Shown one piece after another: positions 36,590 to 58,540 of a stretch of DNA of 64,000 bases (positions within the stretch are counted from its first letter, which is position 1; every line of letters begins with the position of its first letter). The stretch comes from Actinomycetota bacterium (GTDB lineage Bacteria; Actinomycetota; Acidimicrobiia; Acidimicrobiales; VFJN01): contig JBMOLI010000011.1 in the NCBI GenBank assembly GCA_049325515.1, positions 89,022 to 153,021 of the forward strand. Direction: 5' to 3'. The notes under the pieces are model-generated. The model was not told the DNA's origin, did no database searches, and saw only the letters and a program-made list of their open reading frames with translations. The position numbers and the translations under genes were made by a program.

Positions 36590-37183
36590 TCACTTCTGGA
36601 CCGGTGCGTTGCGGTGGCGCCAGGGAAAGGGGGTCGCCGGCTCGGGCAGACCGAGGAACGGGCACAAGGCCTGGTAGTCGTCGCCCGCAGTGATGTCCAT
36701 CACCAACAGATCATTGGGTCGATCGCGGAAGTAGGCGCGCACCCGTTCATGGTGCTCTCGGTACAGCGAGGTCCAGGCCTCCAGGTCGACCTCCAGGAAG
36801 GTCCCGTCGTACTCGCCGGTCTCGATGCGCAGCCTGTTTCGCTCGACATGGCGCCGACGACTGTCGAGCCATCCCTCGAGGCTTCGCGTCGTCAGCACGA
36901 AGCGACTCCCCGGGTACTGCTCGTCGAGGAGATCAAAGCTCACGCTCAGGCGCTGGATGTCCGAGAAGGCGTTGTAGTCGCCGAGGTACGTCAGCAGGGG
37001 AGCCCCTTCCCGTAGCGCCCGCTCGACGGCGACCCGGGAGGCCGGCCCACCCCAGTGGAGGCTGCGGTAGCCGAGCGTCTCCAGCGCCTCATGGAGGGAG
37101 ATCGTGCCGGTCTTGTTGAGGCCGATGCCGAACACCAATGGGCGCCCACCGTCGGCGACTTCATTGAGGTCTTCGCTCGCCAC
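36590..37183 (-). CDS. Sulfotransferase-family protein (Sulfotransfer_4-like)
   Basis: 197 aa from GTG 37181-37183 (TAGTG overlap, GAAGGAGGA 8 nt upstream). GLNKTGTISL (5'-PSB-like loop) and TTRSLEGWLDS (3'-PB-like). Confidence 0.7.
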   Translation of the reverse strand: MASEDLNEVADGGRPLVFGIGLNKTGTISLHEALETLGYRSLHWGGPASRVAVERALREGAPLLTYLGDYNAFSDIQRLSVSFDLLDEQYPGSRFVLTTRSLEGWLDSRRRHVERNRLRIETGEYDGTFLEVDLEAWTSLYREHHERVRAYFRDRPNDLLVMDITAGDDYQALCPFLGLPEPATPFPWRHRNAPVQK

Positions 37184-37986
37184 TACAGGGATCCTCCTTC
37201 GAGGGCTGGCTTGACCGAGCAGAACGTCAGCAACCGTGAGGCGGCCCGGCTGGTGCACTCGAAGCGGACGGCATCGGTCACGAAGCCGATGTCCGAGAGC
37301 TTGTCCAACATGTCGGCGCCGAAGTCGTTGTAGACGAGATGGACTCGGTGGTACACCGGCTCGAGCAGGAGGACGTCATCGTCTCCCGAGGTGTCCACCC
37401 GCTCGATCGTGCGCTCTCGCATCGGCCAGCGCACAGGGACTGTGAAGATGTGAGCGCCTCCGGGGCGCAGGATCCGGTGGATCTCGGCGAAGCCCTCATA
37501 CGGGCGGCGAACGTGCTCGAAGACGTCCGACGTGATGACGAGGTCGAACGAGCTCGACTGGTACGTCAGCGCCATGAGGTCCTCGCACCTGACGCCATCT
37601 CGGGTGTCACCGGGCGCAACGTCCGGCCAGTAGCTGGAGGTCTCGTAGCCCGGCAGCGCACGGAGGTGGCGCCGGAAGGGCCCGAGCTCTCCGGGCTCCC
37701 ACATCCGCAGACTGCGGAACTCGGGCTCAGCGCACAGCTCGGCGAAGCAACGAGCCCCGTGGCGAGCGAAGTGCCTGACCAGAACCCGAGCCTGGCCCTG
37801 GTAGCGAAGTGAGCTTCGGCACGTGGTGCAGTGGTAGCTGGCCCCGATCGCCATGCGGTCCCTCGTGAACCGGCCCCAGGCACCGCATACAGAGCACTCT
37901 CCCTCGAAGAAGTCTGCCTCGGAGAGGTCGACCGGCCGGTCGGCCGGGAGTCGATCGGGCGCACGCCGGCGCGCGAAGAGCTTCAT
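37183..37986 (-). CDS. Class I SAM methyltransferase with N-terminal CxxC...CxxC zinc-ribbon
   Basis: 267 aa. Contains CSVCGAWG...CTTCRS, then FDLVITSDVFEHV and LRPGGAHIF (Methyltransf_11-like). ATGA overlap with the upstream stop. Confidence 0.75.
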   Translation of the reverse strand: MKLFARRRAPDRLPADRPVDLSEADFFEGECSVCGAWGRFTRDRMAIGASYHCTTCRSSLRYQGQARVLVRHFARHGARCFAELCAEPEFRSLRMWEPGELGPFRRHLRALPGYETSSYWPDVAPGDTRDGVRCEDLMALTYQSSSFDLVITSDVFEHVRRPYEGFAEIHRILRPGGAHIFTVPVRWPMRERTIERVDTSGDDDVLLLEPVYHRVHLVYNDFGADMLDKLSDIGFVTDAVRFECTSRAASRLLTFCSVKPALEGGSL

Positions 37987-57770: not shown

Positions 57771-57787
57771 AGGCGGGCTGATCCAGC

Positions 57788-58540
57788 GTGGCTGCCGATC
57801 AGGTGGTCCTTCACATCGGCACGCACAAGACGGGCACGACCTCGCTGCAGCACTTCTTGCATGACCACCCCGACCTATTGGCCGCGGTCGATGCGACGTA
57901 CCCAGCCGGGATGGTGATCGCGGCGTCGCACTCAGAGCTGCCGCTTCTCGCGCTACGAACCGAGCTGACGTGGCCTGCGCGCCTCAGGTTCCCGGAGACC
58001 CAGCAACGAGCCTGGCTCGACGCCGCGCGTGACCATGTCGAGCAGCAGATCGCGAGCTGCCACACCGGCACGATCATCTTCTCCCACGAAGACCTCAGCT
58101 ATGCGCGGTTCGACGAAGAGCTCGACCTGCTCCGGCACCTGCTCGCCGACCTACCGGCGCGTGTGATCCTCAGCCTTCGAGAGCGCTCTGCCTTCTTGCG
58201 CTCATATGGCGATCAGCTCGAGGCAACCGGCTTCGCCCGTAGCACCGATAGGTCGTCCTTTGCCTACGTAGGCGCGGACTCCTGGCTGGCGGACTACGAC
58301 AGCCTGGTAGCTGCCTACCGCCGGCGCTTCGGCGCATCGAGCGTGACGACGATCGACTACGAGGACGAGCTGCGTCGGCACGGATCGGTGATCCCCGCCT
58401 TCGCCGCGCTCCTGGGCCTGGCACCCGCCTCGCTTCCGAAGCTCGACGGCTACTTCCTCAACCGAAGTGGCGTGAACCTGCGGCCGACCGAGGAGCAGCT
58501 GGCCTCGATCCGTCGGATGTTGGCGGAGCAGGCGAGGTGA
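57788..58540 (+). CDS. Sulfotransferase-like P-loop protein
   Basis: 250 aa, GTG start, with VLHIGTHKTGTTSLQ (5'-PSB-like) and ILSLRERSAFLRS (3'-PB-like). Confidence 0.6.
   Translation: MAADQVVLHIGTHKTGTTSLQHFLHDHPDLLAAVDATYPAGMVIAASHSELPLLALRTELTWPARLRFPETQQRAWLDAARDHVEQQIASCHTGTIIFSHEDLSYARFDEELDLLRHLLADLPARVILSLRERSAFLRSYGDQLEATGFARSTDRSSFAYVGADSWLADYDSLVAAYRRRFGASSVTTIDYEDELRRHGSVIPAFAALLGLAPASLPKLDGYFLNRSGVNLRPTEEQLASIRRMLAEQAR

Follow-up and report, generated by a model that had tools for sequence, protein, structure and literature searches.

Sulfotransferases that use 3'-phosphoadenosine-5'-phosphosulfate (PAPS) and act upon bacterial glycoconjugates include mycobacterial Stf0, of the sulfolipid-1 system, and rhizobial NodH, and in these systems a single sulfotransferase serves one small glycolipid or lipo-oligosaccharide and no polymer pathway linked to the Wzm/Wzt exporter is present. 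Sulfated polysaccharides are valued biomaterials, for which few bacterial producers are known and almost no bacterial polysaccharide sulfotransferases have been characterised (PMC8205485, PMC11641403). Sulfated glycosaminoglycan-like polymers have also been measured in extracellular polymeric substances from granular sludge and anammox biomass, their producers and enzymes being unknown (PMC10483923, PMC7356697). Clusters for sulfated polysaccharides that depend upon an ATP-binding cassette (ABC) transporter have precedents (PMC11641403, PMC8205485), and those of Vibrio and Cobetia contain three sulfotransferases, cysDNC and an ABC transporter (PMC11641403, PMC11766843); sulfated exopolymers have additionally been described from Pontiella (PMC7356697). 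In the characterised ABC-dependent O-antigen systems, a coiled-coil ruler carries a chain-terminating enzyme at its distal end, and in Klebsiella O12 and O7 the terminator is fused to two polymerising glycosyltransferase (GT) modules (PMC11231755). In this work we have examined a stretch of 64,000 nucleotides (nt) of an actinobacterial genome (contig JBMOLI010000011.1, positions 89,022 to 153,021; the whole stretch is referred to below as the window), which carries seven candidate sulfotransferase genes, ST1 to ST7, among genes for a predicted envelope glycan. A first-pass annotation, made from the letters alone, had regarded characterised sulfated glycoconjugates of bacteria as few; the Vibrio and Cobetia capsules and the Pontiella exopolymers make sulfated bacterial polysaccharides less rare than this implied. 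Its further statement that such a locus has not been described for this kind of high-GC Gram-positive lineage has held up better: the organism is of this kind, more precisely from an uncultured lineage related to the Acidimicrobiia, and a search of the literature found no paper that links sulfotransferases with this class.

The region that starts at about 20 kb and runs past the window end is in our view a cell-envelope glycan biosynthesis region, the core of which (43.7 to >64 kb) would encode a pathway dependent upon the ABC transporter Wzm/Wzt, whose glycan is sulfated and O-methylated in the cytoplasm; we give this reading a probability of roughly 0.68. It is based upon the domain identities of the proteins, the conservation of their cofactor-binding residues, the lack of membrane segments in the sulfotransferases, the operon structure, a sulfotransferase-GT fusion, and the conservation of the genes in relatives. 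In the proposed pathway, glycosyltransferases of one or several modules would assemble a glycan, bound to a lipid carrier, at the cytoplasmic face. This glycan would be O-methylated in the cytoplasm by methyltransferases of the TylF/CmcI type, and sulfated there at several chemically different positions by seven soluble PAPS-type sulfotransferases (eight with a gene past the window). One of these, ST3, would couple a sulfotransferase to two GT4 modules during chain synthesis, and the finished polymer would be exported through Wzm/Wzt. We thus infer from the genes that PAPS is the donor and a glycan the acceptor, that several sites are sulfated and where the polymer is finally located, and the product is predicted to be a surface glycan that is both heavily sulfated and methylated.

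The seven candidates had been recognised by a two-part motif, and in the translations all seven of the motif pairs quoted for them are found at the coordinates that had been given. A regular expression was built for this motif and the 48 gene products of the window were scanned with it, 200 shuffles serving as a control. Matches were obtained for six of the 48 proteins, compared to 0.49 expected (shuffle maximum 3), and all six are among the seven candidates; ST1 was missed because the fifth residue of its loop is Ile. The 5'-phosphosulfate-binding (PSB) loop ([KR]-x-G-[ST]-[ST], following the first beta-strand) is present in all seven, and its Lys/Arg and Gly residues are invariant or at least 90% conserved in the alignments A1, A2 and A3 and in 103 homologues of ST3. 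The Arg and Ser residues of the 3'-phosphate motif, which follows the loop at a distance of about 70-110 residues, are invariant in the families of ST5 (R88/S96), ST3 (R129/S137), and ST4, ST6 and the eighth protein, ST8 (R100/S108), and in the ST2 family R106 and P108 are invariant. This motif aligns with that of HS6ST3 and HS3OST3A1, two sulfotransferases of heparan sulfate. In a hydropathy scan, none of the sulfotransferases contained a transmembrane-like segment, which fits with the use of cytoplasmic PAPS before export.

In profile, structure and fold searches, none of the seven was reassigned to unrelated P-loop kinases or NTPases; the reassignment of most of them is what the first-pass annotation had named as speaking against it. 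Its assignment of all seven to the sulfotransferases is firm, on the evidence of sequence comparison, for five of them (ST1, the N-terminal domain of ST3, ST4, ST6, and ST7), which are placed in sulfotransferase families, and probable for the other two (ST2 and ST5). ST1 matches Pfam Sulfotransfer_4 at 96 bits (cut-off 22.8) and PDB entry 9kf1 ('Sulfotransferase family protein') with an E value of 2.3e-9; its true start lies somewhere between 37183 and 37258, and its orthologues in three related loci (L005-L007) are 49-55% identical. Matches to Sulfotransfer_3 (cut-off 27) were found for ST7, at 30.9 bits, and for the N-terminal domain of ST3, at 33.2 bits, and an orthologue of ST7 with 55% identity is present in L007. 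ST4 and ST6 are paralogues of each other (38% identity, E 2e-46). ST4 alone has no Pfam match, and ST6 reaches 21.4 bits for Sulfotransfer_2, where the cut-off is 22. In searches of the PDB, ST6 alone matched heparan sulfate 6-O-sulfotransferase 3 (HS6ST3; 5t03) with E 2.3e-7, and the family profile of ST4, ST6, and ST8 (A3, 17 members) did so with E 1.9e-17, the latter alignment spanning the FxHxxKTGGT loop, the LRDPVxRxxS motif and the C-terminal region. The cluster runs on past the window in public contig L002 (Logan SRR32167792_12439, 52 kb), which is 100% identical over the 11,346 nt compared, and the gene for the eighth sulfotransferase is located there, 5 kb beyond the window end (L002:16487-17215, equivalent to window positions 69141-69869). 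Its product is a third paralogue of ST4 and ST6 (37% identity to ST6, E 7e-49), in which the motif pair reads HVMKTGGST / LRDPVDRVIS, and it has weak matches to Sulfotransfer_2 and _1.

ST2, a probable Sulfotransfer_2-like sulfotransferase, matches the Pfam family NKWYS at 63.7 bits in its C-terminal half only. When its family profile was compared with the PDB, the eight best matches were all heparan-sulfate sulfotransferases (best E 0.009), and these matches centre on the VRDPVxxxxS motif; three of 36 relatives of ST2 match Sulfotransfer_4 or _2. In the multi-domain relative P0440, a Sulfotransfer_2 match of 24.6 bits, which is above the cut-off, is located directly before the NKWYS match, and from this layout NKWYS would seem to be the C-terminal half of a domain resembling Sulfotransfer_2. 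The AlphaFold2 model of ST2, with a predicted local distance difference test score (pLDDT) of 90, gave weak Foldseek matches, the best of which were SULT4A1, SULT1C3, and HS2OST (E 0.014-0.04), followed by zeta-toxin kinases. The NKWYS family has 6309 representatives, and no mention of NKWYS was found in the literature. As a separate observation, NKWYS modules are C-terminal in large proteins (P0418, P0423, P0464, and P0440) that contain WbsX and RgpF (rhamnan-type) GT modules and have either Sulfotransfer_3 or Methyltransf_24 as their N-terminal module, and one large NKWYS protein unites Sulfotransfer_3, a Sulfotransfer_2/NKWYS module, an MptE-like domain and TPR repeats.

ST5 had been the weakest of the seven, and its own Sulfotransfer_3 score (16.7 bits) is below the cut-off. 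Its family comprises about 580 proteins, and of the 29 members that were sampled 22 match Sulfotransfer_3, the sole other match being one marginal CnrY (E 0.006). Residues G9, G11, R12, G14, and T16 of the GTGRxGT loop, as well as P86, R88, S96, and R97, are invariant in this family. For the AlphaFold2 model of ST5 (pLDDT 85.7), the best Foldseek matches in the PDB were Teg14, Teg12, StaL, CurM-ST, Stf0, and SULTs; their strength was modest (E 4.6e-4 to 1e-2, template-modelling (TM) scores of 0.36-0.46), and the top 15 consisted of 12 sulfotransferases and three lumazine synthases. Nothing significant was obtained in single-sequence PDB searches with ST2, ST5, ST7, or the N-terminal domain of ST3, and the family profile of ST5 gave a chance match only. 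Comparisons between the sulfotransferase families by hhalign were non-significant (E 0.06-0.28) even for two independently validated families, so that this test has no power here. The sulfotransferases of the cluster fall in four sequence families, viz. Sulfotransfer_4, Sulfotransfer_3 (including a divergent branch), HS6ST-like Sulfotransfer_2, and NKWYS. That all seven are ordinary P-loop kinases was considered and rejected, because the searches detected no kinase family and because the 3'-phosphate motif has been conserved.

ST3 is one polypeptide of 1271 amino acids (aa), in which the sulfotransferase domain (aa 1 to about 200) is followed by a helical spacer (aa 258-365) and two GT4 modules. 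Residues R10, G12, and S14 of the loop and R129, P131, and S137 are invariant in 103 of 103 homologues. The GT modules were identified by a WcaI/TuaC-like NCBIfam match (aa 611-807) and by Pfam Glyco_trans_1_4 and Glycos_transf_1 (aa 1095-1232), and no relative of the GT region was found among solved structures. At E<=1e-20 there are 338 homologues of ST3, and the majority of the 120 that were listed are full-length with PF13469 and GT domains, some of them carrying extra methyltransferase domains. The position of the spacer is fixed across these 120 homologues and its length is 25-162 aa; a few homologues carry Pfam matches of the coiled-coil type. As the sulfotransferase of ST3 shares a polypeptide with two GT4 modules, sulfation would be physically coupled to chain synthesis.

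The genes wzm, wzt, ST2, ST3, ST4, and ST5 are co-directional, and their junctions consist of overlaps of 8, 11, 14, and 8 nt and one gap of 22 nt, the 8-nt and 11-nt overlaps of wzt being with wzm and ST2, respectively. ST6 is convergent and lies 6 nt past ST5, and a methyltransferase-GT fusion, ST7, and a GT4 gene then follow on the plus strand. The Wzt protein consists of the ABC_tran domain only and has no C-terminal carbohydrate-binding module. Wzm/Wzt is the sole recognisable exporter in 84 kb, multi-module soluble glycosyltransferases are present, and no scanned gene has a Pfam match to Wzx or Wzy, two polytopic membrane proteins matching no family. The operon linkage to Wzm/Wzt, to glycosyltransferases and to sugar O-methyltransferases, together with the sulfotransferase-GT4 fusion, supports the sulfation of a glycan and not of an unrelated small molecule.

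Soil, fresh water, and activated sludge are habitats in which Acidimicrobiia abound. In GTDB, the closest genomes at the species level are metagenome-assembled genomes (MAGs) of Acidimicrobiia/Microthrixaceae with 60-69% amino-acid identity. Co-occurrence of the gene set in related genomes had been proposed as a check, and it is observed: the Microthrixaceae-level loci L005-L007 have kept ST1-ST6, the methyltransferase-GT fusion, and Wzt, and they contain extra copies of ST2, ST4, and ST6. In L007, from a Microthrixaceae MAG, nine sulfotransferase genes are present within 16.5 kb (L007:765-16360), and L006 has two ST2 paralogues (L006:1825-7282). The gene order differs in these relatives, ST1 and ST7 being located directly after the ST5/ST6 block. 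More distant Acidimicrobiia retain a homologue of ST5, directly before which a stand-alone gene resembling the N-terminal domain of ST3 (ST3N-like) is found in about one quarter of the loci, and Wzm/Wzt is also found near the ST5 homologue in many of these loci. Among these more distant relatives is IMCC26256, for which a complete genome is available (CP011489.1) and which has a smaller version of the cluster (L017:6231-15489) with a Sulfotransfer_3/_1 gene (121 bits), a methyltransferase, an ST3N-like gene, the ST5 homologue, and GT2 and GT4 genes; Wzm/Wzt matches are present in the same 20-kb locus (within the 10-kb flank). Members of the ST5 family are also found in Opitutaceae and other Verrucomicrobiota, Cyanobium and other cyanobacteria, Pirellulales, and some Proteobacteria. 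Five loci that resemble those of Acidimicrobiia (L009, L012, L015, L016, and L042; 46-55% identity to ST5) are from public MAG records titled Burkholderiales, Bordetella parapertussis, Bifidobacterium breve, or Bifidobacteriaceae, and these titles are probably wrong taxonomic labels.

Table 1. Positions of the sulfotransferase genes and of other envelope-glycan features in the 64,000-nt window.
Feature	Positions	Strand	Evidence or remark
Envelope-glycan region, upstream part: DUF4012 membrane protein, GT2, TylF methyltransferase, PhyH, GNAT	20065-36559	.	Pfam, hydropathy
Upstream part, continued: two GT4, two unassigned membrane proteins	20065-36559		Pfam, hydropathy scan
ST1, predicted stand-alone sulfotransferase (NKTGTIS / TTRSLEGWLDS)	36590-37258	-	Pfam Sulfotransfer_4
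Class I S-adenosylmethionine-dependent methyltransferase, upstream of ST1 on the same strand	37183-37986	-	Pfam Methyltransf_11, E 2.3e-11
Wzm, ABC-2 permease	45260-46087	+	Pfam ABC2_membrane; transmembrane-like segments present
Wzt, ABC ATPase, 263 aa	46080-46871	+	Pfam ABC_tran, E 2.9e-21
ST2, NKWYS-family protein (AKTGSSA / VRDPVAQTVS)	46861-47703	+	Pfam NKWYS
ST3, N-terminal predicted sulfotransferase domain (HRSGTSS / TREPLEIAES)	47726-48325	+	Pfam Sulfotransfer_3
ST3, helical spacer, aa 258-365, Pro-free, Ala/Arg/Glu-rich	48497-48820	+	composition scan
ST3, C-terminal part, two GT4 (GT-B) modules	49013-51541	+	NCBIfam, Pfam
ST4, predicted HS6ST-like sulfotransferase (QKTGGTA / LRDPVERTLS)	51528-52289	+	paralogue of ST6
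ST5, divergent Sulfotransfer_3-like protein (GRAGTTL / PTRRLDIAAAS)	52282-53064	+	family-level Pfam, fold
ST6, predicted HS6ST-like sulfotransferase (MKTGGTT / LRDPIERTIS)	53071-53868	-	convergent with ST5
Multi-module protein: Methyltransf_24, TylF O-methyltransferase, GT2, CmcI/rhamnosyl O-methyltransferase	54471-57770	+	Pfam, NCBIfam
ST7, predicted stand-alone sulfotransferase (HKTGTTS / LRERSAFLRS)	57788-58540	+	Pfam Sulfotransfer_3
GT4 glycosyltransferase, 4-nt overlap with ST7	58537-59691	+	Pfam Glycos_transf_1, E 7e-17
PhyH-type Fe(II)/2-oxoglutarate dioxygenase	59693-60766	-	Pfam PhyH, 25.8 bits
Polytopic membrane protein, about 10 transmembrane-like segments	60833-62500	+	hydropathy scan; no Pfam match at E 0.1
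GT2 glycosyltransferase	62655-63797	+	Pfam Glycos_transf_2, E 4e-32

The positions of these features are listed in Table 1. The G+C content across the window is 64-73%, and bases 1-19,000 form a housekeeping block with dus, groEL, tsaD/B/E, alr, a gene for an NAD(P)HX repair enzyme, acpS, glmS, glmM, truA, rplQ, rpoA, rpsD, and rpsM. In the remainder of the window, starting at about 20 kb, Pfam finds envelope-glycan genes almost throughout, including those for a DUF4012 membrane protein, GT2 and GT4 glycosyltransferases, methyltransferases (TylF, CmcI and class I), two PhyH dioxygenases, two GNAT acetyltransferases, a BNR/sortilin-like protein, an SPFH protein, and Wzm/Wzt. The first-pass annotation had counted at least 10 GT domains and at least six methyltransferase domains between 36590 and 58540, along with two dioxygenases and Wzm/Wzt. 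These counts are roughly right for the whole window, where Pfam gives nine GT domains and five complete methyltransferase domains plus one methyltransferase gene cut by the window end (63801-64000), and the dioxygenases and the exporter are likewise present; several of the counted genes, including both dioxygenases, lie outside that interval. For at least 10 kb beyond the window, L002 holds genes for a methyltransferase, a UDP-sugar dehydrogenase, a GT2 glycosyltransferase, an epimerase, the eighth sulfotransferase, unknowns, and a Methyltransf_21 protein.

The methyltransferase-GT fusion has Pfam matches to TylF (210 bits), RMNT_CmcI (131 bits), Methyltransf_24 (70 bits) and Glycos_transf_2, and its NCBIfam match is to rhamnosyl O-methyltransferase. 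Its long open reading frame (ORF) opens at 54000 and the translation of the first approximately 157 codons is not protein-like; the start was set at 54471 because of the public gene call and of this translation (54000-54470). Between ST6 and the fusion gene there is a divergent stretch of 0.6 kb (53874-54470), for which the public call gives an oppositely oriented gene of 145 aa (53904-54341). Genes for the SPFH/Band-7 protein and for a small protein of 149-168 aa without a family match immediately precede wzm in its orientation (43708-45215), and the same order is found in the public gene calls. Two polytopic membrane proteins, at 31858-33420(-) and 60833-62500(+), have 9-10 transmembrane-like segments each. 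Pfam gives nothing for either even at E 0.1, and the roles for which they are candidates in the pathway are those of a ligase, a polymerase or an enzyme of the GT-C type. A plus-strand ORF of 583 aa (22861-24612) overlaps two minus-strand ORFs (23187-23903 and 23904-24290), the third-position GC content being 0.84 in the former and 0.91-0.92 in the latter, and none of the three has a Pfam match. In a promoter and terminator scan of 43-62.7 kb, the signal was at or below chance.

A number of observations weigh against the proposed Wzm/Wzt-dependent pathway. Polyprenyl-phosphate priming transferases (WecA/WbaP type; PF00953, PF02397) were not found among the genes scanned at 20-64 kb or in the public gene calls of the next 10 kb; such enzymes are commonly encoded elsewhere in the genome. 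The identification of ST2 and ST5 rests on weak statistics. No APS (adenosine-5'-phosphosulfate) kinase was detected in the window, in the 10 kb beyond it (about 74 kb of contig) or in the related loci that were fetched (1.35 Mb in total), by tblastn with CysC of E. coli as the query and a scan for the APS-kinase motif, a result that speaks only to nearby DNA: APS kinase is not encoded close to the cluster. A co-located cysDNC has been termed a hallmark of sulfated-polysaccharide clusters (PMC11641403), and of the two features by which that study defines them, sulfotransferases are abundant here and no cysC-like gene is present in the about 74 kb read. Finally, ST1 belongs to a separate, oppositely oriented operon together with a methyltransferase and the BNR/sortilin-like protein, which has an N-terminal membrane segment, and the genes may for this reason serve more than one product.

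The last of these points leads to the alternative that has the best standing, namely that the sulfotransferases serve two or more separate products side by side (e.g., a wall-linked polysaccharide, a glycolipid, and a surface-glycoprotein glycan) and that no single very heavily sulfated molecule is made. Besides the ST1 operon, the presence of two different multi-module 'polymerase-like' proteins, the extent of the region (>50 kb, with several strand switches) and the altered positions of ST1 and ST7 in relatives are consistent with it. However, no second exporter besides Wzm/Wzt is recognisable in the 84 kb, ST2-ST5 form one tightly packed operon, and in L007 both ST1 and ST7 are located with the core inside 16.5 kb, which points to a functional unit; we regard separate products as unlikely, although the chance is a real one.

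A second alternative concerns the role of ST3 (and perhaps of other sulfotransferases), which might cap the non-reducing end of the chain with sulfate and thereby end polymerisation, in the manner of the terminator-ruler-polymerase proteins of O-antigens. The order of modules in ST3, in which a modifying enzyme at the N-terminus is joined through about 100 aa of Pro-free helical spacer to two GT modules, is the layout that has been described for characterised terminators (PMC11231755). The fixed position and variable length of the spacer among its homologues, the coiled-coil-type matches or extra methyltransferase domains of some of them, and the sharing of an N-terminal slot by Sulfotransfer_3 and Methyltransf_24 in related proteins, before WbsX and RgpF GT modules, argue in the same direction. 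Against this, the 263-aa Wzt has no carbohydrate-binding module, and one is reported in every characterised terminated system (PMC11231755). Additionally, a crude heptad test of a/d occupancy gave no significant coiled-coil periodicity for the spacer, 76% of shuffles scoring equal or higher, and with seven sulfotransferases besides ST3 the decoration of many positions is favoured. Capping by ST3 in place of such decoration is thus rather improbable. A bolder proposal, to which we attach slightly less weight still, is that ST3 and its more than 300 homologues are single-polypeptide sulfate-capping machines that, with the sulfotransferase placed at the distal end of a spacer of variable length, set the chain length of an ABC-exported glycan, the cap being read by a factor that is not fused to Wzt, possibly the NKWYS protein ST2, which is translationally coupled to wzt, and that Acidimicrobiia are unrecognised producers of the heavily sulfated glycosaminoglycan-like polymers of sludge. 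If true, capping by ST3 would be the sulfate-based counterpart of the methyl, phosphate, and Kdo (3-deoxy-D-manno-octulosonic acid) terminators of O-antigens.

That most of the candidates are not active PAPS sulfotransferases, being instead P-loop kinases or NTPases, inactive relatives or enzymes of leaving-group sulfation, so that the glycan carries little or no sulfate, is very improbable: zeta-toxin kinases do appear in the ST2 fold list at similar weak scores, the ST5 fold matches have low TM scores and include the leaving-group sulfotransferases CurM-ST (4gbm) and LGS1 (22ga), and PAPS genes are lacking nearby, but five of the seven have significant and specific sulfotransferase matches, the residues that bind the 5'-phosphosulfate and the 3'-phosphate are invariant over hundreds of homologues, and no Walker-B motif or kinase family was found by Pfam among the candidates.

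For the preferred reading, i.e., a glycan sulfated and O-methylated in the cytoplasm and exported by Wzm/Wzt, the cluster offers eight candidate sulfotransferases of four families, including bacterial homologues of heparan-sulfate 6-O-sulfotransferase. The widespread sulfotransferase-spacer-GT-GT family suggests a directly testable coupling of sulfation to polymerisation, or termination of the chain by sulfate, and IMCC26256, with its reduced version of the cluster, provides an experimental entry point. By their gene content, Acidimicrobiia are candidate producers of sulfated polymers of the sludge type.

Of the described systems, the capsule cluster of Vibrio sp. KMM 8419 resembles the present one in its ABC-dependent assembly and in the presence of several cytoplasmic sulfotransferases among GT genes (PMC11641403). 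Its product is chemically proven to be sulfated, and the cluster has three stand-alone sulfotransferases in an 80-gene region, a second copy of cysDNC inside and a Gram-negative host (PMC11641403). The cluster described here, in contrast, packs 7-8 sulfotransferases of four families into about 33 kb, one of them fused to two GT modules; heavy O-methylation is predicted, PAPS genes are missing from the vicinity, and the host belongs to a monoderm actinobacterial lineage. The xss (synechan) cluster of Synechocystis PCC 6803 and predicted ABC-type clusters of cyanobacteria similarly contain PF13469, PF03567, or PF00685 sulfotransferases in exopolysaccharide clusters; xss differs in having two sulfotransferases, Wzx/Wzy, a megaplasmid location and regulation by XssQ/R/S, and no fusion to GT modules has been reported for it (PMC8205485). 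Within the Actinomycetota, wps-1 of Actinoplanes missouriensis is likewise a cluster for a predicted sulfated polysaccharide, with sulfotransferases and a methyltransferase, but it is Wzx/Wzy-dependent, has two sulfotransferases and belongs to the class Actinomycetes, its product being a prediction of 2026 (PMC13390465).

With regard to individual proteins, ST3 shares its module order, next to wzm/wzt, with WbbB (Klebsiella O12), ORF6 (O7), and WbdD/WbdA (E. coli O9a) (PMC11231755, PMC3482155). In ST3, however, a sulfotransferase replaces the Kdo-transferase or methyltransferase/kinase, the coiled coil is putative, and the accompanying Wzt has no carbohydrate-binding module that would read a cap. 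The family of ST4, ST6, and ST8 aligns with animal HS6ST3 over the PSB loop, the 3'-phosphate motif and the C-terminal region, but the bacterial proteins are soluble, about 250 aa long and without a Golgi membrane anchor, and this homology does not imply a glycosaminoglycan substrate. The mycobacterial Stf0 features here among the fold matches of ST5. In comparison with these systems, the present cluster differs in that PAPS genes are not co-located and that sulfation would be combined with heavy O-methylation; it differs further in the set of HS6ST-like paralogues, the sulfotransferase-spacer-GT-GT fusion, the number and diversity of its sulfotransferases, and the lineage in which they are found.

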